NCBI GenBank assembly: GCA_964426095.1
Contig: CAYRPD010000004.1
Span: 1-34,192 of the forward strand
DNA: 34,192 bases
Source: an uncultured Oscillospiraceae bacterium
Lineage (GTDB): Bacteria > Bacillota > Clostridia > Oscillospirales > Oscillospiraceae
Direction: 5' to 3'
The notes beneath the pieces were generated by a model, which ran no database searches, was not told the origin of the DNA, and saw nothing but the letters and a program-made list of their open reading frames with translations. The translations under genes were made by a program, and so were the position numbers. Positions 6,120 to 27,915 of the stretch are shown here, piece by piece (position 1 is the stretch's first letter; the number at the start of each line of letters is the position of its first letter).

Positions 6120-6135
6120 AATGAAAACCTCTGTA

Positions 6136-6922: not shown

Positions 6923-7534
6923 TTAGTCAAGAGCATCTTCAATACGTTGTAAAGATTGGCTGACGGATTCTAGATTGTCATGTACCGACAATATTTCATC
7001 CACGATGCTAGTTTTCTCACTACTGCCCCCCAACTCTTTCATGTATTCATCAAAAGATTGTTTCTTGTCGTTGCTTGAGGACGATTGCTGTGTAGAGTTT
7101 TCGTTAACACGTGCTACCAATTCCCGTGCATATTCATCAAAAGTTTTTTTCTTGCCGTTGCTTGAGGAGATAACGTTATCTTCATCCATGGGAGTTGTTC
7201 CGTTAAGCTCCGGGGTGTTAAAGACTTCTATACTTTGTTTTATTTCATCGACTACATTGTTTGTGCTTTTATCCGTAGAAGAATCTGACAACCAATTGTC
7301 AATTGAATCTAATGCATTGTCGATGTTGCTTTGTGCGGAGGATAATTCTTCACGGAAATTCTCATAGTCGAGTTTGTTTTTGGCTTCATAGTACCCAGAT
7401 TCGTAACCGCGAGCATAGCCCATTTCCCGACCTTCGGCATAGGCGGCATCTAAATCACTTTGTGAATATGTTCCGCAACCGCAGAGGGAAACGAGAAGCA
7501 CCAATGCAAGAATAAACAGAGCAGACTTTTTCAT
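6923..7534 (-). CDS. secreted lipoprotein (moron; possible superinfection-exclusion factor)
   Basis: Start moved to MKKSALFILALVLLVSLCGCG (signal peptide + lipobox L-C-G-C) with RBS aaaggaa. Internal repeat KKxxFDEYxxEL occurs twice. It shares the motif EIKQSIEVFNTPELNGTT with the giant protein. Confidence 0.75.
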   Translation of the reverse strand: MKKSALFILALVLLVSLCGCGTYSQSDLDAAYAEGREMGYARGYESGYYEAKNKLDYENFREELSSAQSNIDNALDSIDNWLSDSSTDKSTNNVVDEIKQSIEVFNTPELNGTTPMDEDNVISSSNGKKKTFDEYARELVARVNENSTQQSSSSNDKKQSFDEYMKELGGSSEKTSIVDEILSVHDNLESVSQSLQRIEDALD

Positions 7535-7548
7535 AATAGCAATTCCTT

Positions 7549-7866
7549 TCAGTGCTTTTTCACAAATGTGAGAATCCACATAGCGATACAGCAGAGAATA
7601 CCCAATGAATCTGAAAGGTTAATTCCCTTGGATAACATCAAACAAATACACGAGCAAATTGTTATGGTGGCAAAAGTGCGGACGGCAAGTCGCTTATTAC
7701 CTTTCTTGATACACACTAGCAACATTGTTCCGTAGGCGGCAGCCATAGCGAAAAGAACGCCTAAAGTTTCAAACACAAATAAGCCGGTTTCCAACACAAG
7801 GACGCGAAAGAAACTAAAGACAAAAAGATAAATCAATGCAGCGAGCAATATTGCCAAAGTAGTCAT
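7549..7866 (-). CDS. small multi-pass membrane protein
   Basis: 105 aa with 3-4 hydrophobic segments and RBS aaaggag. First gene of a two-gene operon with the lipoprotein. Confidence 0.7.
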   Translation of the reverse strand: MTTLAILLAALIYLFVFSFFRVLVLETGLFVFETLGVLFAMAAAYGTMLLVCIKKGNKRLAVRTFATITICSCICLMLSKGINLSDSLGILCCIAMWILTFVKKH

Positions 7867-7908
7867 AGCACAAACTCCTTTATTTATTTTTTACAGAAAG
7901 CTAAACCC

Positions 7909-7937
7909 ATACTACCACGGATGACAATATAAGTCAA
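7909..7937 (-). promoter_or_regulatory. promoter of the membrane-protein/lipoprotein operon
   Basis: Minus strand reads TTGACT (7937-7932), a 17-nt spacer, then TGgTAGTAT (extended -10; hexamer at 7914-7909). Confidence 0.55.
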
Positions 7938-7958
7938 GGATTGAAAGGGGGTGAGGAA

Positions 7959-8327
7959 ATGGGAAAAGAGAACATAGTAAAAAATGAAACGGAAGATTTG
8001 CGTGAGGAGATAATCATGTACACCGATGCACTCTTGAGGCTTGCGATAGACAAAGGTGAGAAGAGCGCTGAGACAGAATCGGAAACGGACATCAAAGCGC
8101 TTGAACGTATGTATAAGAGAATGACAGGAGAGCCGGATATCTTTTTACAAGGGATAATAATACTTTATGAATCTGCCCCCGAGCGCGCGAACAAAAGAAT
8201 GAAGCAGTACTTCTCTTCGGTGCAGAAAATCCCAAGCTGGGAAACGCAGTTAGAACGGTGCTACGCAATGCTGAACGTTATGAATCGCAATTCCGGCTCG
8301 AAGTTATCTGCTTTGCGCAGTGTATGA
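7959..8327 (+). CDS. hypothetical protein
   Basis: ATG 7959 after aggggg (7-nt spacer); 122 aa, acidic N-terminal half; no recognisable motif. Confidence 0.6.
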   Translation: MGKENIVKNETEDLREEIIMYTDALLRLAIDKGEKSAETESETDIKALERMYKRMTGEPDIFLQGIIILYESAPERANKRMKQYFSSVQKIPSWETQLERCYAMLNVMNRNSGSKLSALRSV

Positions 8328-8377
8328 TTCAGACAAAAAGAAATATAGGCGCGAGAGAATCTGTGCCTATATTGTGG

Positions 8378-8700
8378 TAGGGTGGGGCGAGAGAAGACCG
8401 CCGCCGCTGTAACGGTCGGCGCTCTCCTCTGCACAAGCTCCCAATCAGCCGCAAGGTTTCCGCTACACCCTTTTACGGAATGGCCTTTGCCTAAGCCGAG
8501 GGTAGGCGACACCCGGGCGGAAGTCCTATCTGTTACAGCAGATGCTTAAGCTGATCCCGTTCTTTCAGTGTGCGAGCTTCGCGGGCTTAGACCTCCCACG
8601 AACTGAGAACGGATTGCCGGGAGTAACAGGAACGGTGACATGAGGGAACTAAAGGTAGCTTCCATAACACATCACCCCCTTTCACTCCGGAGCAGCCCTA
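8378..8700. ncRNA. candidate structured RNA, class unknown, strand undetermined
   Basis: No RBS-led ORF. Nested perfect helices: 8529-8535/8623-8629; 8557-8563/8606-8612 plus 8566-8569/8602-8605; 8396-8400/8413-8417; 8458-8462/8476-8480. Closing pair 8378-8382/8696-8700. Confidence 0.3.
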
Positions 8701-8710
8701 TCCTATCACA

Positions 8711-8724
8711 ATATGTGCACATAT
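8711..8724. promoter_or_regulatory. 14-nt perfect palindrome ATATGTGCACATAT (candidate operator)
   Basis: Read directly; it ends 38 nt upstream of the ATG at 8763. Confidence 0.45.
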
Positions 8725-8762
8725 ATCAATAAACAAATTCAAATCTACGGAGGACTTTAACC

Positions 8763-8918
8763 ATGAGCGCAGAAGAAATGAACGATGCAAAGGCATTAGC
8801 CGATGTAATCAATGACATTCCGGCAGAAGATACGGCATTCCTGCATGGCGTAGTTGTCGGCATGAGACAGGCAAACAGAAGTCTGAGGAAAGAGGGGGAA
8901 GACGATGCCGAGAGTTAA
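8763..8918 (+). CDS. small acidic protein (51 aa)
   Basis: RBS ggagga with an 8-nt spacer. Not in the ORF track (<60 aa). 12 acidic versus 5 basic residues. Overlaps the next gene by 14 nt. Confidence 0.55.
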   Translation: MSAEEMNDAKALADVINDIPAEDTAFLHGVVVGMRQANRSLRKEGEDDAES

Positions 8919-9141
8919 CCTCGGAAAGCCCGAGGTAGATAAAATAAAAGGGCTTATCCTTGAACGGCAGAATGCTTTAGGGTATTCGCAAACGCGCATG
9001 GCGAAGCTGTCCGGGTATTCTCAAGCCAAGTACTACCGCATGATGAACGAGCGAAGCAGTAAGGACTGGCCGCTGAAAGATATCCTAAAGCTGACGAACG
9101 CTTTAGGTATTCCCAAAGACGAAGTGCGCGCGGCGATATGA
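8905..9141 (+). CDS. small HTH DNA-binding protein (Cro/XRE-like)
   Basis: 78 aa. HTH-like GYSQTRMAKLSGYSQAKYYRM. RBS gaggaaagaggggga upstream. Confidence 0.7.
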   Translation: MPRVNLGKPEVDKIKGLILERQNALGYSQTRMAKLSGYSQAKYYRMMNERSSKDWPLKDILKLTNALGIPKDEVRAAI

Positions 9142-9157
9142 TAAAGGAGATTAGCCG

Positions 9158-9442
9158 ATGAAGATTCTTGAAGTAACATATCGGTCAAGCCGATATGTTG
9201 AGGACACAAAGATTGAGATGCAGGTGGTGAAGCGCCTTACTGCGGCGGACGAACACGCGGAAAAGCTTCTCACAATGGATTTCAAAGTGTCAACATTCCC
9301 GGACTGGCAAGCGGTGAAGTCGCTTCAATATGCGTTGCTGTACATAGAGAAGCTTAAAAACTGCTCGTATATCTTCGACAGCATAGTAAAGATAAGAGAG
9401 GTAAAAGACTATGAGCCATTATGCGAACCTAAAGAGCAATAA
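9158..9442 (+). CDS. hypothetical protein
   Basis: 94-aa ORF with RBS aaggaga 7 nt upstream. Confidence 0.6.
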   Translation: MKILEVTYRSSRYVEDTKIEMQVVKRLTAADEHAEKLLTMDFKVSTFPDWQAVKSLQYALLYIEKLKNCSYIFDSIVKIREVKDYEPLCEPKEQ

Positions 9443-9821
9443 CAAAAGTATGCCTACCTGCGCCCGCGAGGGCGAGGAACAGGCCACGCTGTTCCATTGG
9501 GCGGCCATGCAGCAGGGCAAGTACCCGGAGCTGGCGGCGCTGTTCCATATTCCGAACGGCGGCAAGCGCGGCAAGGCCGAGGCCGCGCGCTTCAAGAAAG
9601 AGGGGGTAAAGGCGGGTGTGCCGGATTTGTTTCTCCCCGTAGCCCGCGGGCGGTATCACGGACTGTTTATAGAAATGAAGCGCGCCAAGGGCGGTACTCT
9701 CAGCGCAGCACAAAAGGAATGGCGCGGACGGCTTGAATCACAAGGGTACTGCTGGCTCATGTGCCACGGCTGGGAAGAAGCAAGCGAGGCGATTGTGGAT
9801 TACATGGAGGAGAAGATATGA
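9411..9821 (+). CDS. VRR-NUC domain nuclease (PD-(D/E)XK fold)
   Basis: Motifs FHIPNGG, GVPDLFL and GLFIEMK...LSAAQKEW are typical of VRR-NUC. RBS gagg upstream. Confidence 0.8.
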   Translation: MSHYANLKSNNKSMPTCAREGEEQATLFHWAAMQQGKYPELAALFHIPNGGKRGKAEAARFKKEGVKAGVPDLFLPVARGRYHGLFIEMKRAKGGTLSAAQKEWRGRLESQGYCWLMCHGWEEASEAIVDYMEEKI

Positions 9822-9982
9822 ACCTCGCTTCACTCTCGGTGGCAATCAACTGCCGCAACCTCAAAGCAACCACGCGGACGTATGAGGGCAAGGGCTGGAA
9901 TCTTATCTGCGCACGAGACGGGAAGAGCACAGACCAAGCGCACTGCGGCCTGTGCCGTATGCGGGAAAGGCTGGTGCGATGA
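9818..9982 (+). CDS. small Cys-containing protein (54 aa)
   Basis: ATGA overlap with the VRR-NUC stop; RBS ggaggag. The track ORF (9761) was shortened to this start. Confidence 0.5.
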   Translation: MNLASLSVAINCRNLKATTRTYEGKGWNLICARDGKSTDQAHCGLCRMRERLVR

Positions 9983-10185
9983 GCAAGGTACACCGCTGTA
10001 AAAGAAAGAGCTGTTGCTATCATATGCCGGACAACAGCATCTTCGGCTGTAACTATGCCGGCATAACAGGGCACACGCGCCTTGCCCAGCTTCCGCGAGA
10101 GAAGCAAGACCCCGCAGACTGCCCGCTGTACAAGCGCGGCAAGAGGAAAAAATCAATGACACTATCGGTATTACCGAATACATAA
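9979..10185 (+). CDS. small Cys-rich protein (68 aa)
   Basis: ATGA overlap with the previous stop; RBS ggaaagg. Cys pattern C-x4-CC...C...C. Confidence 0.55.
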   Translation: MSKVHRCKRKSCCYHMPDNSIFGCNYAGITGHTRLAQLPREKQDPADCPLYKRGKRKKSMTLSVLPNT

Positions 10186-10197
10186 GGAGAAAAAACA

Positions 10198-10515
10198 ATG
10201 AGCCTTTTTGAAGAAAGCCAAAGCATGAATGCTGTGATGAAAGCATATAAAGATGAAATCGCCGAGCGGCGCGGTGCGCCGGGCAACACCCACGAATGCT
10301 ATGCCCGCATAGCGGACGCGGCGGAGTGCGCGGAAGCGCAGACAAAGGAGTGGAAAGAAAACGTTAAAAGGATGTGGGAATCGTGCAAGGAAGGTGACGC
10401 TACCGCCTTTGACGCATACGCAGGACAGCTTGCGAATGTCGCGATGTTGAGTGCAATGAATTGGCTTACTGTGGCCGCCGAAGCTACCCGCGCATTGGAA
10501 AGGGGTGAGGACTGA
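10198..10515 (+). CDS. hypothetical protein
   Basis: 105 aa with RBS aaggaga. Confidence 0.65.
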   Translation: MSLFEESQSMNAVMKAYKDEIAERRGAPGNTHECYARIADAAECAEAQTKEWKENVKRMWESCKEGDATAFDAYAGQLANVAMLSAMNWLTVAAEATRALERGED

Positions 10516-10919
10516 TGACTATAGGCGGGTGGTTGATATTCGCAATACTTGCGGGGCTTGCTGCGCTGCTCGGATTAATCGGTGCATTACTGTACTATTA
10601 TGATACGGGAAAAAAGAATGGAAGTATATTAATCGTGGTCGTTACGGTTAGCATAATTATTGCTTTACTGTCGGGAATGAAGTGGTTCTATTCAAATACA
10701 GCGAGCGGGATAAGAGCGATGACTGATCAGCAGTCGGAGCTGGCAAACGGGCTTGAGCGCACAGTGACAATCTACACAGCAGACGGTAAAACTATAGCGC
10801 AGTACCAAGGGAAAATAGATATCGAAGATAACGCGGGCGGGTATGTCTTATTCGATTTCGAGGGCAAGCGCTACGCCTACTATAACTGCTTTGTAGAAAG
10901 CATAGCTGATATAAGATAG
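10515..10919 (+). CDS. membrane-anchored protein (two N-terminal TM helices, beta-rich C-terminal domain)
   Basis: TGATG overlap with the upstream gene. Hydrophobic segments at roughly aa 5-28 and 38-56. Confidence 0.65.
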   Translation: MTIGGWLIFAILAGLAALLGLIGALLYYYDTGKKNGSILIVVVTVSIIIALLSGMKWFYSNTASGIRAMTDQQSELANGLERTVTIYTADGKTIAQYQGKIDIEDNAGGYVLFDFEGKRYAYYNCFVESIADIR

Positions 10920-10930
10920 GAGCTAACCCA

Positions 10931-11101
10931 ATGACAAATTATGAAATAATATGTTCTTCGATAGACAAAGCGGCGAAGCATTTGGAAGATAACCTAATCT
11001 TCACTTGCCCGCCGGGTAGAGAAAACAGTATGTGCAATGAAGAAACCTGCACTAAATGCTGGCGAAGATGGTTAGGCCATGAGGTGAAAGAAGATGTGTG
11101 A
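10931..11101 (+). CDS. small Cys-rich protein (56 aa)
   Basis: Not in the track (<60 aa). RBS taggag with an 8-nt spacer. CPP...C...C..C pattern. Overlaps the next start (ATGTGTGA). Confidence 0.5.
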   Translation: MTNYEIICSSIDKAAKHLEDNLIFTCPPGRENSMCNEETCTKCWRRWLGHEVKEDV

Positions 11102-11402
11102 CTGGTTAATTAATAATCTCCCCTGGTGCGTGGAGCACATAGGCGGAATGGCGCTGCCGTGGCAGACGGTGCTTGCGCTTGCGCTGGTTGCGGCGGCGGT
11201 GCTGGTGTATTACGCGGCGGGCATCGCAATTGACAGCGCTTGCGCGCGCCCCGCCGCGCGCGTCCGGGCGCGGAACAGGAAAGACCGCCGCGCCGCACCG
11301 CGCGTCACTTTGCGTGAAAGACTGAAAGAGCTTAACTGCTACAGCGATTATGAGGTGTACGATGCGGAATGGATAGACTACGAGAAATTCATAAACGAAT
11401 AG
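11094..11402 (+). CDS. membrane protein with an Arg-rich segment
   Basis: 102 aa. TM helix VLALALVAAAVLVYYAAGIAI followed by an RARNRKDRR tract. Confidence 0.55.
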   Translation: MCDWLINNLPWCVEHIGGMALPWQTVLALALVAAAVLVYYAAGIAIDSACARPAARVRARNRKDRRAAPRVTLRERLKELNCYSDYEVYDAEWIDYEKFINE

Positions 11403-11584
11403 AGGATAGCCACGTTTTTACAAAGCTTTGCCCGGACTGTGCCGAGAAGCTTAATCGAATGTACTTTCTCAATCCGCATAAAAACTCCGGCGACAGATTA
11501 AAACGGTGCGAGCTTTGTAAACGCATAGGGTATTTCCTCGACTACGACTATCACACCGCCAGCTACGGAAGAGGGGAAAAGTGA
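11369..11584 (+). CDS. zinc-ribbon mini-protein (paralog 1)
   Basis: CPDCAEKL...CELCKR. The start is uncertain (weak RBS, 34-nt overlap). Confidence 0.5.
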   Translation: MDRLREIHKRIEDSHVFTKLCPDCAEKLNRMYFLNPHKNSGDRLKRCELCKRIGYFLDYDYHTASYGRGEK

Positions 11585-15324: not shown

Positions 15325-17349
15325 ATGGATGAAATCAAAAGCATTACCCCGGCACTGGATAGCCGCCCGGTGAATAGCGAGACGCTTACTAAATTCAATC
15401 TCGCTTTGAACAAGTACAAGGCCGGTAAGAAAAGTGTAGAGACGCGCGCTATAGCGGCGGAAAACTGGTGGAAGCTCCGCAACCAAACCGAGACAGAGAA
15501 AGAAACCATAGGGCTGGCAGGGTTCAAAGCTAAGAGCGGGTGGTTGCATAATGTCATAGTTGCCAAACACGCAGACGCTACAGAAGCTTTTCCCGAACCT
15601 AACATCCTTGCGCGCGAGCCGAACGATGTCAAGGAAGCCGGTATGCTCAGCAAGATAGTCCCCGTTGTGCTGGACGCGAATCACTTTGAAGAAACCTACA
15701 GCGACTGCGCATGGCAGAAGCTCAAGACAGGTACAGCGATATATAAAGTTTACTGGGATTCGGACAAGCTGAACGGCCTCGGAGATATCGCAGTGCAGAG
15801 GGTGGACGTGCTCAATGTGTTTTGGGAGCCGGGCATAACAGATATACAGAACAGCAAGTATTTCTTTCACACCGCATTCGTTGACAATGAGGTGTTGGAG
15901 AGCGCATACCCCCAGCTCAAGGGCAAGTTGAAAGCAGCGGCCTTTGTCCCTGCCGATTTCCAAACAGATGATAGCGTGCCGAAAGATAACAAGTCTGTCG
16001 TGATAGATGTGTACTACAAGAAGCGCGAGGACGGCAAGACGGTGCTGCACTACTGCAAGTATGTCGGCAATGAGATTCTGTACAGCACGGAGAATGACGG
16101 AGCGCTGCCGCACAGTGTAGAGCCGCCCGCCGTGGCCGTGCCTATGGTAGAACCGGGGAGTATGCCCCTGCCCGGAGCGCAAGACGATGCGGGGAGTGTA
16201 CAGGATAATATATCCGAACAGATAACGGGGAGTATACCTGCGGCCATGGGCGGAGCAGTACCAATGACTGCGCCGCAGACGATACACCAAGGGCTGTACG
16301 ACCATGGGCTTTATCCTTTTGTGTTTGACCCTCTCTTCCCGATAGAGGGCAGCCCCTGTGGGTATGGGTACATTGACCTTTGCCAAAACAACCAAATGCA
16401 AATTGACCTAATGCAGACGGCATTCTTGAAGAACACAATGGTGGGCGCAATGCCCCGGTACTTCTCACGTATGGACGGGTCAATCAACGAAGAAGAGTTC
16501 TTAGACCTCAACAATCCCATAGTTCACGTGAACGGAAACCTGGGGCAGGACAGCCTAAAGCTTATAGACCACAAGGCGCTGAACGGTAACTACCTCAATA
16601 TGCGCACGTCCATAATAAACGAGCTGCGCGAAACGAGTGGAAACACGGAAGCTAGCAACGGCGTTATATCTTCGGGGGTAACTGCGGCCTCAGCTATAGC
16701 CGCGTTGCAAGAAGCGAGCGGGAAAGGCAGCAGAGACAGCAGCCGCGCAAGCTACCGGGCGTACTCCCGCATTGTCAATCTGTGCATAGAACTGATTCGA
16801 CAATTCTACGATATCCCCCGACAGTTCAGAATCACAGGGCAGCTCGGCGCGGAAACCTTTGTGCGCTATTCCAATGAGGGCTTGAAGCTACAGACGGAGC
16901 AGAGCGGGAACGTAATGCTTGCCCGCTTGCCGGAGTTTGATATCAAAGTCAGCCCGGCGAAGAGGTCAAGCTACAGCCGCATAACGCAGAACGAAATGGC
17001 ATTGCAATTCTACAACCTCGGCTTCTTCAATCCCCAAATGACAGACCAAGCGCTGGCTTGCTGTTACATGATGGACTTCGATAACAAAGACACGGTAATG
17101 CAGATGATTAACTACAACGGCACAATGTATCAGAAGCTTGCGCAGTTCCAGCAGCTTGCCCTTGCCCTTGTGCAGAAATACGAGCCGGAGCGGGTTAATG
17201 AGCTGGCCGCTTCTATCACGGGACAGGCTGCGCCCGCCGCGTCAGCCGGAAGCGCCGAGGATATAAAGTTAGCACCTGACACGGAGGAAGATACCCGCGT
17301 GCAGAACACCCGCGCCAAGAGCCAATCATATTCACAGCCGGAGGGATAA
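15325..17349 (+). CDS. portal protein
   Basis: 674 aa, immediately after terL, with an acidic/disordered C-terminus. Assigned by size and position; no motif verified. Confidence 0.75.
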   Translation: MDEIKSITPALDSRPVNSETLTKFNLALNKYKAGKKSVETRAIAAENWWKLRNQTETEKETIGLAGFKAKSGWLHNVIVAKHADATEAFPEPNILAREPNDVKEAGMLSKIVPVVLDANHFEETYSDCAWQKLKTGTAIYKVYWDSDKLNGLGDIAVQRVDVLNVFWEPGITDIQNSKYFFHTAFVDNEVLESAYPQLKGKLKAAAFVPADFQTDDSVPKDNKSVVIDVYYKKREDGKTVLHYCKYVGNEILYSTENDGALPHSVEPPAVAVPMVEPGSMPLPGAQDDAGSVQDNISEQITGSIPAAMGGAVPMTAPQTIHQGLYDHGLYPFVFDPLFPIEGSPCGYGYIDLCQNNQMQIDLMQTAFLKNTMVGAMPRYFSRMDGSINEEEFLDLNNPIVHVNGNLGQDSLKLIDHKALNGNYLNMRTSIINELRETSGNTEASNGVISSGVTAASAIAALQEASGKGSRDSSRASYRAYSRIVNLCIELIRQFYDIPRQFRITGQLGAETFVRYSNEGLKLQTEQSGNVMLARLPEFDIKVSPAKRSSYSRITQNEMALQFYNLGFFNPQMTDQALACCYMMDFDNKDTVMQMINYNGTMYQKLAQFQQLALALVQKYEPERVNELAASITGQAAPAASAGSAEDIKLAPDTEEDTRVQNTRAKSQSYSQPEG

Positions 17350-17352: not shown

Positions 17353-17664
17353 ATGACTAAGATAATCTATGATGAATCGAACAACGTATTAGAGATAAGC
17401 GGCCACGCAGGAGCGGGAGAGCCGGGAAAGGATTTGGTGTGCGCTGCCGTTACAATTCTCATGCGCACGCTGGAAGCTTCGGTTATGGATAACCGAGCTA
17501 GACTGTGCCCCACGGTGTGCCATAAAGACGGGTATGTAAGAATCCAATGTAACCCCCCACCCAGGGCAAAAGCAAAGAGCAAAGAAATCTTCACCACGAT
17601 ATACCGCGGGTATGAGCTGTTAGCGCAGCAGTACCCGGAGTATGTAAGAACCGTAATATATTGA
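17353..17664 (+). CDS. Prp-type cysteine protease (ribosomal-processing cysteine protease family)
   Basis: 103 aa. SGHAG...GKDLVCAAVT places the His18/Cys30 dyad 12 residues apart, as in Prp. Confidence 0.75.
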   Translation: MTKIIYDESNNVLEISGHAGAGEPGKDLVCAAVTILMRTLEASVMDNRARLCPTVCHKDGYVRIQCNPPPRAKAKSKEIFTTIYRGYELLAQQYPEYVRTVIY

Positions 17665-17677: not shown

Positions 17678-18748
17678 ATGTCATTACTTGTAGGCATAGA
17701 CGAAAACAAAAAGCAGCAGACCGCCGCGACACAGGCCGACACTACGCCGACCGTGGATAAGGTGGTGCATCAGGACACGGCCACGCAGACCGCTACCCCG
17801 GCAGTGAAGACTGCCACGCAGTCAACTACCCCGACAACGACAGCCAACACCACGGCAACCACGACCCCGGCCACAGCAACGGCAACCACGAGCGGGAGCG
17901 GGAGCAGAAGCGCGGTATATGAGAAAGCCATGCAAACGCTCAAGCAGGCGCAGGGTAACGCGCCCACATATTCATCTTCGTATGATGATGATATCAATGA
18001 GATATACAATCAGATTGTCAACCGCGCGCCCTTTAAGTATGACTACAGCACTGACCCGCTTTACAACCAGTACAAGGAGCAGTATACCCAGCTCGGCAAG
18101 CAAGCCATGAAAGATACCATGGGGCAGACGGCGGCGCTCACCGGGGGCTACGGCAACAGCTACGGAAGCGCAGTAGGACAGCAGCAGTATGACGCATATC
18201 TGCAAAGGCTGAATGATGTTGTGCCGGAACTGTACGGGCAAGCCTATGATATCTATTCGCAGGAAGCAAACGACTTAGAAAAACAATACTCCATGCTCCT
18301 TGACAGGCAGAACACGGAGTATAACGAATGGCGCGATGCGTTGTCAGATTACCGCTACGACCAAGCGCTGGAGCTTGACAAGGGGCAGCAGCTTGCGAGC
18401 GACCTTGCGGCATACGGGGACTTCTCCGGCTATGCGGAGCTGTACGGCAAAGACGCGGCGGCCAAAATGGAAAAGGCTTGGGCGGTTGCGAATCCTCTGC
18501 CGGCATACATAAACGGACAGATAGACGCAGAGGAATACTACAGAATAGTCGGCGAATATCCCATAGGCTACACTCCGCCCGGTTCTTCATCGGGAAGCAG
18601 CGGCGGGGGCTGGACGTTCGACCCGTGGTATGGCGGAACGGCGAGAGATACCAGTACAGATAAAAGCGCAACGAAGACAGAAACAAAGAGTTCTGCTGTA
18701 ATTACTCCGACAATAATTAACAAGTATGAAAGGTATTATTACAAGTAA
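17678..18748 (+). CDS. Thr/Ala/Pro-rich virion-associated protein (function unknown)
   Basis: 356 aa. Low-complexity aa 15-75, a Tyr/Gln/Asp-rich core and a Gly/Ser tail. RBS gaggaggg. Confidence 0.7.
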   Translation: MSLLVGIDENKKQQTAATQADTTPTVDKVVHQDTATQTATPAVKTATQSTTPTTTANTTATTTPATATATTSGSGSRSAVYEKAMQTLKQAQGNAPTYSSSYDDDINEIYNQIVNRAPFKYDYSTDPLYNQYKEQYTQLGKQAMKDTMGQTAALTGGYGNSYGSAVGQQQYDAYLQRLNDVVPELYGQAYDIYSQEANDLEKQYSMLLDRQNTEYNEWRDALSDYRYDQALELDKGQQLASDLAAYGDFSGYAELYGKDAAAKMEKAWAVANPLPAYINGQIDAEEYYRIVGEYPIGYTPPGSSSGSSGGGWTFDPWYGGTARDTSTDKSATKTETKSSAVITPTIINKYERYYYK

Positions 18749-21700
18749 TATGAGTAATAAGATATTAGAAGAAATAGAAAAAAGTATTGCCGCGTATAAT
18801 ACTCCAGAGCTTAACGGCACAACAAAAGCGCAAGCCCCGGCAACGAAAGAAAATGCAAGTAATGCATATAGAATAAATACAATACCTTCTTCGCAGAATA
18901 ACGTGTTAGGCGAAATAGGAAAAAGCGTTGCCGCGTTCAACAATTCTAAGCTTAACGGGACAAACGGCTGGAAAATGAAGTCGTATACGAAAAACCCTCA
19001 AACCAAAGCCAAGAAGAGCGTGGTATCCTATGACCAAGGGGGTAAAGTAAACGCATGGCAAACTGCACTGAACGTTCTAAATGGGATTGACAGTGCAAAG
19101 GTTAAGGCGCTGAGCAATCAGAAGTACAGCGACAGATTCAATGAAGAGGTATTAAAAGAGTATACGGCTCGCGGTGGAAAAACCTTTTTAGGCAAAGCTA
19201 TGAACGCGAATTTGTACAAGCAAATTGAAGATGAGCTTACGCCGAACTATGCTCCGGCGCAAACTTCATATGAAAGAGCCAAACTCCCCGCCAGCATGGC
19301 AAGAGATTCTATCGTTGAAAATGCACAGGCGGCGCAGTATCTAGCTGATTATTACGAGAACCCGACAGTAGCAATCGAGGGAAGCCGAACGAGAGGTAAT
19401 ACCCTTGACTATCTGCAAAAGTATGAAAACATGGGCTTTGGAGAAAAGCTCGCAAACACGGCAGGGAATGCTGTGGTTAACTACGGCCTTGATCTGTCGA
19501 ACACATTGCTTACCGGGGCAGACGCATTAACAGGCGGAAAGCTCAGCAACGGCAACAGCAAAGCAGCTTCTATCTATTCTGCGCTTAACTTTGCGCAGAA
19601 TGCGGGGAGCGGGTTAACCTCTCAAGCTTACAACAGTATGCGTGAAAGCTCTAACTGGTTAGGTAAGCTCATCCTTGACTTGGAGAAAACAAGTGTAGAG
19701 CAATTGCTTGACCGTGCCTTTTCAGCATTTGGCATGAACGGAGCAAACAGCCTTGTATCAATGGGGGCTAGAGTGTTTGGCTCGGGTGCGCAGGAAGCGG
19801 AGAACGAGGGTAAAAGCCTGAGAGAACAGTTATTAACAGGTGGAATACGTTCCGGCATAGAGATTGGGACAGAATTATTAGGCGGTGTCGGCGGCTCGTG
19901 GAGGGGTACGGGTTACGGTGACGCAGTGTTTAACTCGCTGGATAAGTGGGTTGGAACAAAAACGAATAAAGAAATGCTTGGCACTTTGGCAAGCGCATTC
20001 GGCAGTGAAGCGACAGAAGAAATGCTGTCGGATATTCTCAATCCTTTAGCGGATAGAATATTCAACATCAGCAACGGCGATCAGACCTTTTGGCAAGAGG
20101 TATGGGGTGACGGGCAAATCCTTTATGACGGTTTACTGGGTGGGCTTGCAGGATTGGGCGGCGGCCTTGGCACATCTTTTTCTAACGCTTCAGCGGCGAA
20201 GTACTTCGGTGTAGATGTAGCTACATATAAAGCAGCGCAGAGAATAGCCGGAGATAAGAAGCTTCGCAAAAAGTATGAGAAGTATACGGGTGAACACCTG
20301 CAAGAGAATGAATCGACATCCATAATGCAGATAGCCGTTGGCCTTACCGAGACAGCAGAGAAAACAGATAGCACTACCCGTGCGCTTGAAAACGATATCC
20401 GCCAATACAAAGCAGAGCCGCACGGTACGCAGAGCGCCACCACCCCCGCGGCACTCTCCACCTCACAGACGGATACGAGCACACTCGCTGCCGCTAACGT
20501 TGCGCAGAACGCGTCAGAATCGCCCACAACGAACGAGAGCGCGAGGACAAGCACGAATACCACCCCCGCACAAAACTATTCACAGAGCACCATACAGGCC
20601 AAAGCAGCGGCACTCGGAGACATGACCGCAATATACAACGGCGCAGAAGCGCGCGTAACCAGCATGGTGAAAATGGATAACGGGAAGTACGCGGCACAGA
20701 TAGAGTACCCCACCAGCAAAGGCATAAAGAAAAGGCAACTCACCGAAGACAAGCTGACCTTTGACCCGGAGACAAAGCGCCTTATCAATATGTTCCGTCC
20801 GTATGAATACAGCAGCGAAATGCTTTTTAATTACGATGCGCAAAAGGACGGCGGGGAAAACCTTGCGGCGTACACCATGGCCTTTAACACCGTGGCGGAT
20901 ATCCTCGGCAAGCAGACAACGCTTTCTGAGGAAGCGGCGAAGCAGTACGTGCAGGGCGAGCCGGGGCTGGCAAGCACCTTGTCTGAAGAACAGATTACTG
21001 CGGCATTCAGAGCGGGAAGAAAGAGCAAGGATGCGCGTGTACAATCCAGCGTTACTCGCAAGGGCGGCACGGGCAAGCTCGTGTTCGGGAAAAGCATAAC
21101 CGTGCAGGGAATGCAGTACCAAGCCGCCACTGAGGACATGGTAAGCCAAGCAGAGCGGGAGGTGTTGCAGACCGTAGCAAAGGCGGCGGGCGTGGATATC
21201 TTCTTCTATCAGTCTGAGGAAGCGGAGGGCATATACCAAGGGGCAAACGGGTTTTACCGTAACGGCACAGTATACCTTGATGTTAACGCCGGGGCAGAGA
21301 GGACTACGGAGCAGTCGGCAATCCTGCTCACGGCGGCGCATGAACTCACGCACTACCTTAGAGAGAACAACGCCGAGGGTTACGCCGAGCTGCGGGACTT
21401 TGTCACAACGCACCTTATACAGGACGGCACGGACATAGTTACACTTGCCGAGCAAAAGATAAGAAACGAGGGCGGGGAAAACTATGCAGACTTTACATTG
21501 GAAGACGCGATAGAAGAAGTCGTGGCCGACAGCTGCGAAATGATGTTGGAGAACACCCAGCTTCCGCAGATAATGGCGCAAGAAAACCCCGACCTTTACA
21601 GTAAGGTTAGGGGCTGGCTGAGAAAGTTTGTAGAGAATCTGCGCCGCGCGTTCGAGGGCGTGACAGCGAGAAGCCCGGAAGCCCGCGCCATGGTGCAGTA

Positions 21701-24700
21701 TGCCGGGGAGCTTCAGCAGATATGGGACAATGCCCTGGCCGACACCGCATTGAAGCCGAGAGAGAAGCGCGGCGCGAGCGGGAGCACGAAGTATTCTTAT
21801 GCCGGGCGTAATGCAAGCACGGCGAATATGGAGACGCTGTCTAAGGCAGAGGAGCTAGAGCGCAACGGCGAGGATTGGAACACCATACGCAATGAAACAG
21901 GTTGGTTCAGAGGCATGGATAACAAATGGCGATATGAAATCAACGACAGCAATATGGAGTTTCGCAAAGGTGGTGATGTACAGTTACTCGCAGAGCCGGA
22001 GTATCAGCAGCTTATAGATTTGACAGATAAGTGGGCAGCCTCGTTTGACGGCGGTGAAGCTTTAACCGAAGCCGAAGAAAATGAAATGACCCGTTTGAAA
22101 GAAAAATACGGCGCGGAAGTATGGGAAGATAAATATATGCTCCGCGACTTTGTAAAGCATGATGAGCTGTTCGAGGCGTACCCTCGCTTGAACAGTGTCG
22201 GCTTGCAGTTTGATGAACTGCCGGACGGAGTGAAAGGCTATTACAGCAAGCGCGGCAATACGATTATCTTAAATGAAAGCTTGTTTGGTAAAGAGCCTGA
22301 TGTAGTACTGCACGAGATACAGCACATCATACAAAAGATTGAGGGCTTCACCGGCGGCGCGAGCGTTGAGTATTGGGAAGAGCAAATGAAAAACGGTTAT
22401 TCCAAACGAGGAAGCCGTGAATCGGATATGATGCCGGGCGAGCTTTACCGTAATACAGCCGGGGAAATAGAAGCGAGAGACACAGCTTCACGCCGCAAGC
22501 TGACAGCAGAAGAGCGCCGCAGCAATGCCCCTGTACGTGCAGACGAGAACACCGTGTTCGCTGATGATGAACGGTCGTACAGCGTTAGAAATTATAAGGG
22601 CAACAGAATTGTGTGGATTGATACTGATATAACAAAACAAAAACCTAGCGATGTGCCAATACAGGATTATGTCCAGCGATACATATCGGACATGGCATAC
22701 GATAGGAGTGACTTCTTAGCTACATTGCCGGAAAGCGGAATTAACGTGTATGCGGAGAAAAAAGGTAGAACACCGAAAAGCAAATACGGTTTGGCTGAAG
22801 AGTATGTTAGGTCAACTTATTCCCGTTGGCTCAAAGACAACTCCAAGAGTGCATTCCGTGCAAAAATGAAAGCAGCTGGTGTTCTTGATGAATTGGTATC
22901 AATTGCGACTGGGCGGAAGTGGAGCGAAACTGAACACTCGCATAATAAAGACGCAAGGTATGGAGTAGATACGTACAGAAGCTCTTTCGCGTTTCCAGTC
23001 AAAGATAATATGGGTAAGCTTGCAAATGTCAGAGCATACGACTGTAAGCTGATAGTATTGAATGCCAGTGACGGCAAAAAGTATTTATACGATGTGACAG
23101 GAATAAAAGAAAACACCAGTAAGGCAAAGGACGTTCTCCTTTCGGAGCGTCAGAGGGCGGCTTATAGAGCCGCACGCCAAACTGATGTTGTCAACAATAT
23201 ATCACAGCCCGGTGAAGAAGTCAACAGTAAGTTTTCCCGCCGTGCGGCAGATGATACAATGACAAAGGAACAAGTGCGGGAACAGCAGATAAGCCGTGCG
23301 GAGCTGTTGCGGGAGAACGAGGCGTTGAGACAACGCGCAGAGTATTGGAAAGGGCAAACCCAGCTTACCAAAGAAAAGACTGTGCGCAATACGGACACGC
23401 ACAAGTTTGCCCGCGACATGGCGGAAAAGCTTGATGTAAAGAACCGTGAGGCCGTGGCTGAGTTTGAAGACGCGGCGCAGCACATGGGCAATTACATCGT
23501 GCAAAGCGACAGTGAGACCTTAGACTATGACACGCTTCACACCATGGCAAGCGAGACGGCGGATATTCTGTTGAGCAATTCCGAGGTTGAAGTGGAAAGC
23601 GGCATGGAAGAACAGCTCGGTGAGCTTGCCGATTACATCAAGACGCATAAGCTCAAGGTGAACGAAACGGAGCTAAAGGATTTGCCTAAAGAGTGGCTGC
23701 GCCAGCACAGGCGCTTTATCAAACTCAGCTCGGACGGTACACCGATAGATGTGGCATGGCAGGAGTGGCAAGAGCAATTCGGGGAAGGTATGTTCCCCTC
23801 GGACATTACAGCGCAGTCGGATATGCTTCAGCGCCTTGCCGATATAGAGCAGGGCTGGAGAACATATAAGGCCAATCCCTTTGAAAATAACATGGCCGAA
23901 ATGCGGGAGATTGTGGCGCAGGAAATAATAGATACCATGCTCAGCGATGAGATACGGCAGACCGCGCCCACCGCCGCCGACCGTGCCAAAGCCAAGGCAG
24001 ACAAACGCTACTCGGATATGCGACAGGCCGAACGGCAGCGCGCCAATGAGCGCATAGCAAAGGTGCTTGAAGAGGGAAAGCAGCGGACAAAGGATGCGGT
24101 AAAGGCCGAGCGCACATTCCAGCTTCAAAGGGTGGAACGTATACAAAAAATGAATAGCATAAAAAAGCTTCGTGACCGTATGATAAAAAGCCTTACGGAC
24201 AACACGGGCAAGAACCATGTGCCGGATATCCTTAAAGAACCCGTTGCTCAACTGCTGCAGAGCATAGACCCGACAACCAAGCGCACCCGCCAAGCCGGGA
24301 CAAAGCTTTATGTAGAATCTCTTGAAAAGCTTCAGCGGGTATTAGAACAGCAACGCAAGCACAATGCGCATACCTTGGATGAGAACGAAGCCGAGGGCGA
24401 GGGGGCAGATCTGTTCTTCGATATCCCCGTAGAGTTTACCGAGCAGATACAAGATTACGTGGATAACGTTAAGCATTGGGGCGAGTTTTCCAAGACAACA
24501 ACATTCAAGCTGGAAGACATGAGCTTGCAGGGGCTGAACGATTTAGAGAATATTCTGCGCGTGGTGAGGGGTGCTGTCAATAATGTTAACGAGCTGTACG
24601 ATATGAACACAACAGCCTCCGAGCTTGGGAATGAGACGATAAACTATCTTGCGGAGATGAAAGAGAAAACCAAGGTAACGGGTGGAATGGAAAAGTTCCT

Positions 24701-27700
24701 CGGCTTTTCAAACCAAACCCCTGTGTATTACTTTGAGCGCTTCGGTGAAGCGGGAAAGAAAGTAATGAAATCTCTGACGGACGGCTGGGATAAGTTCGCG
24801 TTCTATACGGATGAGATATTGAGCTTCGCAAAGAATCTGTATTCAACAAAGGAAGTGCGCAAGGCCGAGCGAGATATACGTATAGTACAGCTTCATGAGA
24901 CGCTGGCGGACGGATTGACGGACAGCGTAACCGTCCCGGTATCCATGACACGCGCGCAGATAATGAATCTGTACGGCGCGGCACGCAGGGGCGAAGCGTC
25001 ACTTAATCATATTCTCGGAGCGGGTATAGAGATTACGGCAATAAAGCCTAAGGTGGGAAAGGCCACAGCGCAATCTAAAACTTATCTCTTTGAGGATATC
25101 TACGAGCTGGCGCAAATAATAAACGACAATCTCACGGCAAGGGATAAGCAGATAGTAGACGCAATGATAAGCTTCATGAGCGGGCCTGTTGCGAAGTGGG
25201 GTAATGCCGTCAGCCAAGAACGCTGGGGAATAGATTTGTTCACCGAGGAAAACTACTGGCCTATAATAACAACACGCAACAGCCACAATGTATCTAACTC
25301 GGATTCGGCGGGAGCGTCAACCAGCATATACCGCTTAATGAATATGGGATTTACAAAGAAGCTCACCCCCGGCGCGAACAATCCCGTGGTTATCGGCAGT
25401 GCGTTTGATGTGTTCGCTAACCATACTTCGGACATGGCAAAGTACGGCTCAATGGTATTGCCTATCCTGAACACCATGAAGTGGATTAACTACTCTTCGG
25501 CCACGGGCAACAGGACGCTGCAAGCCGGCATAGATTCTGCGTCCCCGGGCAAAGCATATTCCCAGTACACAACCGTGTCCGTGAGAAAATCCATGGATAG
25601 CATATACGGGCGTGAAGCGCAGGACTATCTCGTCCAGCTCTTGCGTGACCTCAACGGCCAAAGCGGCGGGATAAGCAGCGTGGACTTTGTAGATACGCTG
25701 ACTTCAAACTACAAGCGCCAAGCCGTGGCGGCCAATCTGCGCGTGGCCTTGCTCCAGCCCACAAGTATTATCAGGGCATTTCATGTTTTAGAATCGAACG
25801 GATTAAGCATGGATACATTGCGCTCGTTCGCAGTCAAGAAGAATTACGAGGAAGCGAAAGCGAACAGCGGCATAGCACTGTGGAAAGACTTGGGCTTTTA
25901 TGACACTAACATAAATGCCTCTGTGCGAAAGCAGATAAAGCACGATGAAAGCTTTATTGATAACCTCGTAGACAAATCAATGTTCCTTGCCGAGAAAGGA
26001 GACCGGCTGACATGGAGTATCTTGTGGGGTGCGAGCCGACATCAAGTTAAGCAGGAAGCAGCGAAAGTCGGGCAGAAGCTGACGCACGAAGAGCTTATGC
26101 AAAAGACTAATGAGCTTTTCACCACGGTGATATATAAAACCCAAGTGGTGGATTCTCCGCTTACCCGAAGCCAGCTTATGCGCAATAACGATAAGCTTAG
26201 CAAAGCTCTGACTGCGTTCATGGCCGAGCCGACATTAAGCTATAATGTCTTGGCCGAGAATGTACATGAGTTTGCGAGGGAAACCAGCGCGCATGATATT
26301 CCCACGGCGTGGAAGAAATGCGGGAAAAAGATTCTCCGAAGCTTGGTGATATACAGCGCGTCCGCTATTCTCACAGCGGCGGCGGCGAGCCTTGCCGATG
26401 CCGGGAGAGACGATGACGAATATAAAAAGCTTTGGCAAAAGTGGCTGGAAAAATTCAAGGGCGAAGAAAGCTTTTGGGACAGCAACATATGGGCGGAACT
26501 TAATCCTCTTACCAAGCTCCCGGCTATAAAAGATATCTTCAATCTTATTGCCGGGCAGACTTCAAGTAATATGTGGCTTGAGGGATTCGATTCTGCGTAC
26601 AGTGCAGTCAAGAGTATCTATGAGAGAATCGGCGAAAAGGATGATTTGTTCCGGCTAGAAATGAAAGATTGGCAGGTTGCTTATCGCGGATTAAAAGCAG
26701 CGTCCCAGCTCGCGGGGCTACCTCTAATGACATTCACACGAGATGCCGTAGGCTTGTGGAATACAACAGTCGGAGCTTTCACCGGGAAGTATATCCACAA
26801 CTATGACTACGACCAAGAGAAAGCTATACGCAATGCCTACCGCAGCGGGTACTTAGACGAAGAGCAGGCAATGAATCTTCTCATGGATAGGGACACCATG
26901 GGCGACAACGTTTATTTCACGGAGCACGCGGCGCAGGTGAAGATAGCCGACTGGACGAACGACAGCATAGAAGCGATGTACGACAGCCTTTACACCGCTA
27001 TGGAAAACGATGACCGAGCGGGTTTTAATGCGGCAATGGAAAGCCTTGTGAAAGACGGAAAGCGCTATCACTATGATGTGATAGGCAATGTCCGAAGCAC
27101 GATTAAGGAGTGGTACATCGGCGATGAACACGGGGCATATAAGCTCAACAGGGACATGGCCGTGGATATGCTGACGGATTACGGCGGGTACACTACGGAC
27201 GATGCAAAGAAGACGGTGCACCAATGGACGTGCGAGAAAGTAGAGGGCTTCAGCTACACCAACCGGAAAGAGTTGTTTCTGCTCGGAGATATCACGAGGG
27301 ACGAAGCGATTAAGCTTGTAATGGCATACGGCAAGGACGATGACGGCAAGCTTCTTTCCGACTATGAAGATAAGTCCGCCGCAAGGGAAGCAGCCGAAAA
27401 GGAAGTGCAGACTTGGCAAATGGCGCTTGACACCAAGATAGACTACGAGAAAATCCGCAGTGCCTATGATGCCGGAGAAATAAGTGAAGCGCAGCTGAAA
27501 GAGTATCTCATGACATACGGCAGTTTAGAAGAAGAATCCGCAGAAAATAAAGCGTACCTTTGGCAATGGAAAGAGGGCGATGACAAGCTGGGAAGTATTA
27601 CGAGCGCGCAAGCGCGGCGGTATGATAACTACATTGTCGGCGCGGGCGTAGACATTACCAAGGAACAGTATGCGAATTTCATTGACGGAAACTTGGCAAG

Positions 27701-27908
27701 TGAGTTTAGCGGTGATCTGAAGCCTGGGAGTACAACCTCTTATATACCCTACAGCAAGCGAAATAAAATATGGGCGTACATAGACACTCTGCCACTAACC
27801 CCGGAGGAAAAGGACGCAATGGCTGTTGTATACGCATACGATAATAATCCGGACACTTCGGCAAATTCTTCGTATTTCGATTTGCAAGAAGCCCCTTGGA
27901 ACAACTAA
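18726..27908 (+). CDS. giant multi-domain (polyvalent-type) virion protein, 3,060 aa
   Basis: Single uninterrupted ORF. An alternative start at ATG 18750 lies 1 nt after the upstream stop. Features are the duplicated N-terminal motif, a Gly-rich region, HELTH (21339-21353), HEIQH (22311-22325), a nuclease-like module, coiled-coil stretches and a large C-terminal region. Confidence 0.85.
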   Translation: MKGIITSNMSNKILEEIEKSIAAYNTPELNGTTKAQAPATKENASNAYRINTIPSSQNNVLGEIGKSVAAFNNSKLNGTNGWKMKSYTKNPQTKAKKSVVSYDQGGKVNAWQTALNVLNGIDSAKVKALSNQKYSDRFNEEVLKEYTARGGKTFLGKAMNANLYKQIEDELTPNYAPAQTSYERAKLPASMARDSIVENAQAAQYLADYYENPTVAIEGSRTRGNTLDYLQKYENMGFGEKLANTAGNAVVNYGLDLSNTLLTGADALTGGKLSNGNSKAASIYSALNFAQNAGSGLTSQAYNSMRESSNWLGKLILDLEKTSVEQLLDRAFSAFGMNGANSLVSMGARVFGSGAQEAENEGKSLREQLLTGGIRSGIEIGTELLGGVGGSWRGTGYGDAVFNSLDKWVGTKTNKEMLGTLASAFGSEATEEMLSDILNPLADRIFNISNGDQTFWQEVWGDGQILYDGLLGGLAGLGGGLGTSFSNASAAKYFGVDVATYKAAQRIAGDKKLRKKYEKYTGEHLQENESTSIMQIAVGLTETAEKTDSTTRALENDIRQYKAEPHGTQSATTPAALSTSQTDTSTLAAANVAQNASESPTTNESARTSTNTTPAQNYSQSTIQAKAAALGDMTAIYNGAEARVTSMVKMDNGKYAAQIEYPTSKGIKKRQLTEDKLTFDPETKRLINMFRPYEYSSEMLFNYDAQKDGGENLAAYTMAFNTVADILGKQTTLSEEAAKQYVQGEPGLASTLSEEQITAAFRAGRKSKDARVQSSVTRKGGTGKLVFGKSITVQGMQYQAATEDMVSQAEREVLQTVAKAAGVDIFFYQSEEAEGIYQGANGFYRNGTVYLDVNAGAERTTEQSAILLTAAHELTHYLRENNAEGYAELRDFVTTHLIQDGTDIVTLAEQKIRNEGGENYADFTLEDAIEEVVADSCEMMLENTQLPQIMAQENPDLYSKVRGWLRKFVENLRRAFEGVTARSPEARAMVQYAGELQQIWDNALADTALKPREKRGASGSTKYSYAGRNASTANMETLSKAEELERNGEDWNTIRNETGWFRGMDNKWRYEINDSNMEFRKGGDVQLLAEPEYQQLIDLTDKWAASFDGGEALTEAEENEMTRLKEKYGAEVWEDKYMLRDFVKHDELFEAYPRLNSVGLQFDELPDGVKGYYSKRGNTIILNESLFGKEPDVVLHEIQHIIQKIEGFTGGASVEYWEEQMKNGYSKRGSRESDMMPGELYRNTAGEIEARDTASRRKLTAEERRSNAPVRADENTVFADDERSYSVRNYKGNRIVWIDTDITKQKPSDVPIQDYVQRYISDMAYDRSDFLATLPESGINVYAEKKGRTPKSKYGLAEEYVRSTYSRWLKDNSKSAFRAKMKAAGVLDELVSIATGRKWSETEHSHNKDARYGVDTYRSSFAFPVKDNMGKLANVRAYDCKLIVLNASDGKKYLYDVTGIKENTSKAKDVLLSERQRAAYRAARQTDVVNNISQPGEEVNSKFSRRAADDTMTKEQVREQQISRAELLRENEALRQRAEYWKGQTQLTKEKTVRNTDTHKFARDMAEKLDVKNREAVAEFEDAAQHMGNYIVQSDSETLDYDTLHTMASETADILLSNSEVEVESGMEEQLGELADYIKTHKLKVNETELKDLPKEWLRQHRRFIKLSSDGTPIDVAWQEWQEQFGEGMFPSDITAQSDMLQRLADIEQGWRTYKANPFENNMAEMREIVAQEIIDTMLSDEIRQTAPTAADRAKAKADKRYSDMRQAERQRANERIAKVLEEGKQRTKDAVKAERTFQLQRVERIQKMNSIKKLRDRMIKSLTDNTGKNHVPDILKEPVAQLLQSIDPTTKRTRQAGTKLYVESLEKLQRVLEQQRKHNAHTLDENEAEGEGADLFFDIPVEFTEQIQDYVDNVKHWGEFSKTTTFKLEDMSLQGLNDLENILRVVRGAVNNVNELYDMNTTASELGNETINYLAEMKEKTKVTGGMEKFLGFSNQTPVYYFERFGEAGKKVMKSLTDGWDKFAFYTDEILSFAKNLYSTKEVRKAERDIRIVQLHETLADGLTDSVTVPVSMTRAQIMNLYGAARRGEASLNHILGAGIEITAIKPKVGKATAQSKTYLFEDIYELAQIINDNLTARDKQIVDAMISFMSGPVAKWGNAVSQERWGIDLFTEENYWPIITTRNSHNVSNSDSAGASTSIYRLMNMGFTKKLTPGANNPVVIGSAFDVFANHTSDMAKYGSMVLPILNTMKWINYSSATGNRTLQAGIDSASPGKAYSQYTTVSVRKSMDSIYGREAQDYLVQLLRDLNGQSGGISSVDFVDTLTSNYKRQAVAANLRVALLQPTSIIRAFHVLESNGLSMDTLRSFAVKKNYEEAKANSGIALWKDLGFYDTNINASVRKQIKHDESFIDNLVDKSMFLAEKGDRLTWSILWGASRHQVKQEAAKVGQKLTHEELMQKTNELFTTVIYKTQVVDSPLTRSQLMRNNDKLSKALTAFMAEPTLSYNVLAENVHEFARETSAHDIPTAWKKCGKKILRSLVIYSASAILTAAAASLADAGRDDDEYKKLWQKWLEKFKGEESFWDSNIWAELNPLTKLPAIKDIFNLIAGQTSSNMWLEGFDSAYSAVKSIYERIGEKDDLFRLEMKDWQVAYRGLKAASQLAGLPLMTFTRDAVGLWNTTVGAFTGKYIHNYDYDQEKAIRNAYRSGYLDEEQAMNLLMDRDTMGDNVYFTEHAAQVKIADWTNDSIEAMYDSLYTAMENDDRAGFNAAMESLVKDGKRYHYDVIGNVRSTIKEWYIGDEHGAYKLNRDMAVDMLTDYGGYTTDDAKKTVHQWTCEKVEGFSYTNRKELFLLGDITRDEAIKLVMAYGKDDDGKLLSDYEDKSAAREAAEKEVQTWQMALDTKIDYEKIRSAYDAGEISEAQLKEYLMTYGSLEEESAENKAYLWQWKEGDDKLGSITSAQARRYDNYIVGAGVDITKEQYANFIDGNLASEFSGDLKPGSTTSYIPYSKRNKIWAYIDTLPLTPEEKDAMAVVYAYDNNPDTSANSSYFDLQEAPWNN

Positions 27909-27915
27909 CAAAAAA

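Follow-up and report, generated by a model that had tools for sequence, protein, structure and literature searches.

A Prp-family cysteine protease in the head module of an Oscillospiraceae prophage and its predicted scaffold-like and capsid substrates

Between the portal and the head genes of a prophage in the genome of an uncultured member of the Oscillospiraceae lies a small open reading frame (ORF) resembling Prp, the protease that acts on ribosomal protein L27, and the locus raises the question of whether the phage brings its own protease for the maturation of its head proteins or leaves this task to the enzyme of its host. The window, by which we mean the whole stretch of 34,192 bp that was analysed and which constitutes a complete contig, is a prophage junction beside the host gene alaS (56–2698), which encodes an AlaRS of 880 residues with an AlaRS domain and is followed by a host HIT-family gene (2711–3061, HIT domain). 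The left end of the prophage is marked by a tyrosine integrase gene (3590–4696, reverse strand; PF00589), whose product has a zinc ribbon at its N-terminus. A gene at 6329–6733 (reverse strand) is HTH repressor-like. The AlaRS of the window is 98% identical to the AlaRS of an uncultured Oscillospiraceae MAG. The host is therefore a member of the gut Clostridia, which should have a Prp of its own and a long L27; in 80 Oscillospiraceae loci, no host Prp or L27 gene was found within range of alaS. The head-module proteins tested included no further protein recognisable as a prohead protease.

The protease gene and its family

The ORF at 17353–17664 (forward strand, 103 residues) has an ATG start and a GGAGGG ribosome-binding site, and begins 3 nt past the stop codon of the portal gene. 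Its product opens with MTKIIYDESNNVLEISGHAGAGEPGKDLVCAAV... and reads ...EISGHAGAGEPGKDLVCAAV... in the region of the predicted catalytic residues. The product matched PF04327 (Peptidase_Prp) with 53.6 bits (E = 2.6e-14, profile positions 11–90 of 90), the gathering score of the profile being 27, and also matched PHROG 4478 'peptidase' (phrog_4478) with an E-value of 1.2e-15. The AlphaFold2 model, which was built on 13 homologues, has a pLDDT of 92.5 and a pTM of 0.85, and in a Foldseek search of the PDB with this model ranks 1–13 were all Prp structures (TM 0.71–0.82), comprising those from S. mutans (2G0I/2G0J), S. pneumoniae (2IDL), S. aureus (4PEO/7KLD/7JVS) and T. maritima (1S12), whereas the first non-Prp match, at rank 14, had an E-value of 0.064. 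The identity between the phage protease and the solved Prps in the Foldseek alignments is about 12–29%.

Focusing on the catalytic residues, a phmmer alignment to S. aureus Prp (SaPrp; 4peo/7kld) equates His18 (codon CAC, 17404–17406, forward strand) with SaPrp His22 and Cys30 (codon TGC, 17440–17442, forward strand; also placed by the homologue alignment) with SaPrp Cys34, the two residues being spaced 12 residues apart within GHA...D(I/L)VCA. As shown for SaPrp, His22 and Cys34 form the catalytic dyad, the G21A, D31A and S38A variants are inactive, Ala23 contributes to the oxyanion hole, and Gly21 and Gly29 flank a mobile loop (PMC9405229). In the phmmer search of the PDB, Gly17, His18, Ala19, Gly25, Asp27 and Cys30 of the phage protease were identical to SaPrp Gly21, His22, Ala23, Gly29, Asp31 and Cys34, respectively, and all six are invariant among the 13 phage homologues. 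Thr34 aligns to SaPrp Ser38, with the hydroxyl group kept, and this position is Thr or Ser in the relatives. The position of SaPrp Phe42, which packs against P1/P2 of the substrate (PMC9405229), is occupied by Arg38 in the phage protease.

An earlier, sequence-only reading of this DNA had placed a Prp-type protease after the portal gene, with His18 and Cys30 12 residues apart. The first point is upheld by PF04327, phrog_4478, the predicted fold with its Foldseek matches and the catalytic residues, the second by the two codons and the SaPrp alignment, and the profile search, to which that reading had looked for a check on family membership, gave a PF04327 score well above threshold (53.6 versus 27). 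On the profile matches and the predicted fold, the ORF is assigned to the Prp family (MEROPS C108). All eleven NCBIfam Prp equivalogs (PRK14553) match the ORF, the best of them with 38.4 bits at a cut-off of 171; since these scores are far below the cut-offs, the product is best regarded as a member of the Prp family and not as the housekeeping orthologue. Its gene has the portal gene on one side and further head genes of the prophage on the other, and does not have the rplU–prp–rpmA operon context.

Leaders of the scaffold-like and capsid proteins

The two presumed substrates are encoded some 10 kb downstream. The major capsid protein (29131–30222, forward strand) belongs to the N4-gp56 family, matching phrog_1357 and TIGR04387, the latter at the equivalog level with 189.8 bits at a cut-off of 60. 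The scaffold-like protein (28075–29091, forward strand, 338 residues) has phrog_13908, a family to which no function is assigned, as its sole profile match, and its name follows from the position of its gene before the capsid gene, a position that it also has in relatives. The scaffold-like ORF was extended by automatic calling to an upstream TTG (27826), but the starts of the homologues support the ATG at 28075, which is preceded by GGAGGA; the protein opens with MYKFNWLQTFAEGS. Just upstream of the capsid ATG at 29131 lies GGAAGGAG, and the capsid protein opens with MFKYEWIQYFADAG. Thus, the start sequences given for both proteins in the earlier reading stand, whereas 'scaffold' is to be read as a name based on position.

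The N-termini of the two proteins share the pattern M[YF]K[FY]xW[LI]QxF-A. In a six-frame regular-expression scan of the window, W[LI]Q.FA and [FY]K[FY].W[LI]Q were each found at these two head-protein N-termini only, in agreement with the previous statement that no other ORF starts with the motif. The L27 motif is MLxx(D/N)LQ(F/L)F'A(S/H)KK (PMC9405229), and host Prp cuts the F'A bond (PMC5744158). Because Prp cuts at F'A, the leaders are predicted to be ten residues in length, MYKFNWLQTF in the scaffold-like protein (28075–28104, forward strand) and MFKYEWIQYF in the capsid protein (29131–29160, forward strand), with a predicted cut before Ala11 as the mature start in both cases; the scaffold-like assignment draws on the sequence and its homologues, and an equivalent of the capsid leader is present in the best 120 of more than 6,000 relatives. 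The cleavage point had earlier been drawn after the alanine (FA|), one residue too late, and the corrected sites are MYKFNWLQTF'AEGS and MFKYEWIQYF'ADAG.

The capsid protein has more than 6,000 relatives in a protein search. Among the best 120 of these, a leader of 6–22 residues ending in (D/N/W)LQxF'A(D/E)AG(T/S) was found in 120/120. These leaders comprise 67 distinct sites, with Gln at P3 and Ala at P1' in all 67, Phe at P1 in 66 and Leu at P4 in 64, while Asp or Asn occupies P5 in 48 and Trp in seven; with such conservation, the motif is far beyond chance. The positions contacted in the SaPrp–substrate structure are P4 Leu, P3 Gln, P1 Phe and P1' Ala (PMC9405229), and the proposal that both scaffold and capsid carry L27-like leaders is thus borne out by conservation at the very positions that SaPrp reads. 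In IMG/VR, an alignment-based scan yielded 80 capsid loci (a scan with a single capsid protein as the query gave no matches), 78 of which have an LQxF'A[DE]AG leader, the other two having the near variants QFFA|NAG and QFFT|NAG.

Leaders of the LQxF type are also present at the N-termini of 63 of the 81 scaffold homologues, with Ala, Gly or Ser at P1'; examples are MDKIKWLQYF'A (in full MDKIKWLQYF'AEGS, on one close contig), MEKLYWLQFF'A and FDFDLQLF'A. In about 16 relatives, Prp and the capsid leader are accompanied by a scaffold that lacks a leader, and scaffold tagging is therefore optional within the group. Among the IMG/VR loci, L034, L036–L038, L040–L043, L051, L052, L069 and L071 have Prp, a capsid leader and a scaffold homologue without the LQxF leader. 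Trp at P5 was considered as a mark of Prp-encoding phages and was rejected, since some scaffolds with Trp at P5 are found alongside capsids with Asp or Asn at this position, so that there is no clear correlation.

Gene order in the window and in related phages

The portal protein encoded directly upstream of the protease gene (15325–17349, forward strand) is P22-like (PF16510, 82.9 bits; phrog_156). Among related loci that show the portal plus at least 500 nt downstream, the Prp gene is located 3' of the portal gene in 50/51, including podophages and siphophages, so that the linkage of portal and Prp is near-obligate. The contigs of the seven closest Prp homologues have the exact gene order of the window, namely TerS, TerL, portal, Prp, a 356-residue protein and a giant protein. 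With a profile made from homologues, a Prp ORF was found 0.65–4.4 kb upstream of the capsid gene in 46 of the 80 IMG/VR loci; the remaining loci have little upstream sequence, or the layout of the window, in which the intervening giant gene of roughly 9 kb would place Prp beyond the 10 kb flank. Long open Prp frames of about 2 kb in L076, L081 and L083 were considered as portal–Prp fusions and rejected, since the portal ends at its usual place in another frame; the long frames are attributable to GC-rich DNA.

In one relative, MT835607.1 (L008), the portal, scaffold and capsid genes are located at 7404–11561 with no Prp in 25 kb; its scaffold begins MEGEF... and has no leader, whereas its capsid keeps MFKSKVGFQFF'A, and this phage may naturally depend on the Prp of its host. 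Bacillus phage Page, a distant relative with a capsid about 30% identical, has neither leader nor Prp, which fits the linkage of the two. In P0134 (980 residues) of the representative library, the first approximately 84 residues of Prp continue in frame into the central part of a giant polyvalent protein; P0134 has the appearance of a deletion derivative or an assembly chimera and not of a designed fusion.

Two genes lie between the protease gene and those of its presumed substrates. The first (17678–18748, forward strand) encodes a conserved head-module protein of 356 residues that has homologues in related loci and gave no Pfam or PHROG match; it directly follows Prp in the closest relatives and is located elsewhere in the module in others. 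The second (18726–27908, forward strand), a gene of about 9 kb that accounts for most of the separation, encodes a giant polyvalent protein of 3060 residues with an LPD23 domain (83.9 bits) and two HExxH motifs (encoded at 21339–21353 and 22311–22325). The homologue of the giant protein in L001 has MuF_C, and in other relatives the giant gene is located downstream of the capsid gene. Cleavage of the giant protein by Prp at the internal sequences VQLLA and LQRLA (residues 1085 and 1701) was rejected, as the sites are not conserved and their density is that expected by chance.

Directly after the giant gene, a pattern scan gave a terminator-like hairpin with a T-run (27913–27944) followed by a promoter-like site containing TATAAT (27966–27995), both on the forward strand (27913–27995 overall), and because of these elements the sequence suggests that the scaffold–capsid pair is transcribed separately from the Prp gene. 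Past the capsid gene, two small conserved proteins with unassigned functions are encoded at 30234–30530 (phrog_15239) and 30550–30930 (phrog_12105); L008, L009 and Bacillus phage Page likewise have a counterpart of the first 3' of their capsid genes.

Overall, the comparison indicates that the arrangement of Prp with leaders is widespread in gut Firmicutes phages and also occurs in isolated lactococcal and Dorea phages, and that a protease together with tagged substrates is a rule of the clade and not a one-off. The portal–Prp linkage lends further weight to the earlier suggestion of a protease supplied by the phage itself.

Proposed head maturation and comparison with known systems

These features can be combined into a model in which the phage Prp probably removes the ten-residue leaders of the scaffold-like and capsid proteins at F10'A11, a reading in which we have good confidence on the sequence data. 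The protease would belong to the head-assembly module and be expressed together with the portal, and the scaffold-like and N4-gp56-type capsid proteins would each be made with a ten-residue leader ending in ...W(L/I)QxF. The phage Prp would recognize Leu or Ile at P4, Gln at P3, Phe at P1 and Ala at P1' and cut the F'A bond, so that the mature proteins would begin AEGSAPAG... (scaffold) and ADAGTLVN... (capsid). The details of recognition may differ from those of SaPrp because of the replacement of Phe42 by Arg38 and of Asn/Asp by Trp at P5. Likely purposes would be the coordination of folding or assembly, or the supply of enough specific protease for the hundreds of capsid and scaffold copies per particle. 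We infer from these comparisons the occurrence of the cleavage, the phage rather than the host enzyme as the cutter and the purpose of the cut, and the independence of head maturation from host Prp, which the earlier reading had put forward, would follow in the same conditional sense.

If the host Prp were instead to cut the phage leaders, the phage Prp would serve another purpose, such as the processing of L27 to sustain or bias ribosome assembly, or would act on some other target. Such a division of labour could draw on the reliance of 80alpha on host Prp (PMC5744158), on the expectation that the host, as a Firmicute, has its own Prp, which could cut the leaders, and on the capsid leaders of most relatives, (D/N)LQ(F/Y)F'A, which are very near the L27 consensus. 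The phage L008 bears on both readings, as it keeps its capsid leader with no phage Prp in 25 kb, but, being the sole Prp-less relative, has also lost its scaffold leader, which we count in favour of cleavage by the phage Prp. The abutment of the Prp gene on the portal gene within the head module in 50/51 loci, across podophages and siphophages, argues against the host enzyme as the cutter, as does the specificity of each Prp for its own L27, the C. difficile Prp not cutting the S. aureus peptide (PMC9405229). The leaders of the window moreover differ from L27 in having Trp at P5 and acidic or small residues at P2'–P4' instead of S/H-K-K, and we consider cutting by the host Prp to be unlikely. 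Because Prps are specific for their own L27, and in view of Trp at P5 and the acidic P2', there is room for a co-adapted, host-independent pair, and it is conceivable, although we hold this only tentatively, that the phage Prp and the leaders have co-evolved as a protease–substrate pair and diverged from the Prp/L27 pair of the host. The divergent traits would be Trp at P5, an acidic residue at P2', the Gly or Ser that some scaffolds have at P1' and, in the enzyme, Arg at the position of SaPrp Phe42. If so, head maturation would be insulated from the host enzyme, the phage Prp may compete with or perturb host L27 processing, and the near-universal retention, in a very large gut-phage clade, of an enzyme that the host already has would be explained.

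The cut itself may not be the main point of the leader, since cleavage of the capsid and scaffold proteins is dispensable for the viability of 80alpha (PMC5744158). The leader could mainly be a binding tag with incidental cleavage, and the phage Prp an assembly chaperone or docking factor that unites scaffold and capsid at the portal. This idea is in line with the abutment of the Prp and portal genes and with 80alpha, in which uncleavable capsid and scaffold are viable, leaderless scaffold makes no capsids and a shared chaperone-like role has been suggested (PMC5744158), but it is hard to reconcile with relatives that have no scaffold leader at all, or with the invariance of the full catalytic apparatus across phage Prps of 31–97% identity, from which it is argued that the chemistry is under selection; a binding role of this kind is quite improbable. 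The unmet NCBIfam equivalog thresholds could also be taken to mean that the ORF was recently captured from a host, or is a remnant without activity, and that the leaders resemble L27 by coincidence. The conservation of synteny and catalytic residues in dozens of phage lineages, the leader in 120/120 of the best capsid relatives and the restriction of the motif to two N-termini of the window contradict this, and together with the 50/51 linkage they effectively refute an interpretation that is in any case extremely improbable.

The interest of the trimming of both head proteins by the phage Prp, as we propose it, lies mainly in the generality of the protease–leader pairing, which is notable. The concept of phage head maturation is unchanged by it, being precedented by 80alpha (with host Prp) and by Streptococcus phage Cp-1 (with its own C108 protease). 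Work on Prp as a target for narrow-spectrum antibiotics is under way, and little of its substrate specificity has been mapped; E. coli, to our knowledge, lacks a Prp. A very large gut-phage group with protease and tagged substrates together would offer hundreds of natural enzyme–leader pairs for studies of specificity; an exhaustive HMMER search gave 1,657 Prp-like cluster representatives at E ≤ 1e-3, and at least 555 IMG/VR stretches were confirmed for the group. For annotation, the rule would be that phage Prp genes are head-maturation proteases and that the mature N-terminus of the capsid is the predicted Ala11. In BFVD, the names "Cysteine protease" and "YsxB-like protein" are already in use for gut viral MAG proteins of the Prp fold, and the literature searched contained no account of a PF04327 Prp that is encoded by a phage and coupled to L27-type leaders, although older papers may mention it.

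Compared with known systems, the phage enzyme is most readily set beside S. aureus Prp acting on the 80alpha capsid (gp47), the 80alpha scaffold (gp46) and L27, with which it shares the family, the fold and the His/Cys spacing of 12. That host Prp trims the capsid and scaffold of 80alpha, as noted in the earlier reading, is documented, with the cut at F'A (PMC5744158). In both phages scaffold and capsid are both tagged, and the leader ends in LQxF'A with a small P1' and the F'A cut site, which is predicted for the window. However, the protease of the window is phage-encoded beside the portal, whereas that of 80alpha comes from the host rplU–prp–rpmA operon; the substrates of the window have Trp at P5 and acidic/small residues at P2'–P3' in contrast to N/D and S/H-K; and 80alpha is a staphylococcal siphovirus, whereas the window represents a temperate phage of an Oscillospiraceae host with a P22-like portal and an N4-gp56-type capsid.

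Similar to the window phage, Cp-1 encodes a small cysteine protease (orf13, 104 residues) of the same MEROPS family or clan, assigned to C108, which removes 48 N-terminal residues of the major head protein (PMC12445089). The orf13 product (L174, 8805–9119) aligns end to end with PF04327 at 18.5 bits, below the cut-off. If 48 residues are removed as reported, the Cp-1 head protein (L174, 5410–6507) is cut after His48, ...ARINH|ATVP, which is not L27-like, and the scaffold of Cp-1, a phi29-like phage, has no such leader, unlike that of the window phage.

In the Lactococcus phages TP712 and PLgT-1, which we take to be siphoviruses, the portal is likewise followed by Prp (71 bits on PF04327); their scaffolds start ...LLKLNLQLF'A or KLLKFNLQRF'A and their capsids KLKFNLQRF'A/S, but their capsid families did not match the capsid profile of the window. 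In Dorea phage DO134P1 (L011, OP172779.1), the record of which annotates a tail protein, Prp is located just upstream of the scaffold–capsid pair, as a clear ORF (5965–6255, 67 bits on PF04327) in a gap of the GenBank annotation, with a scaffold starting MANLQLF'A and a capsid with ...LGLQVF'T. The Prps of these three phages, which fall into PHROG 4478 'peptidase', are about 28–33% identical to that of the window. The prohead proteases of the HK97, lambda and T4 types are also encoded by the phage in the head module and trim capsid and scaffold, the role proposed here for the phage Prp; typically, they act within the procapsid and cleave off long delta domains. In contrast to the phage Prp, they are serine proteases (S78, S77, U9/U35) of an unrelated fold and catalytic type.
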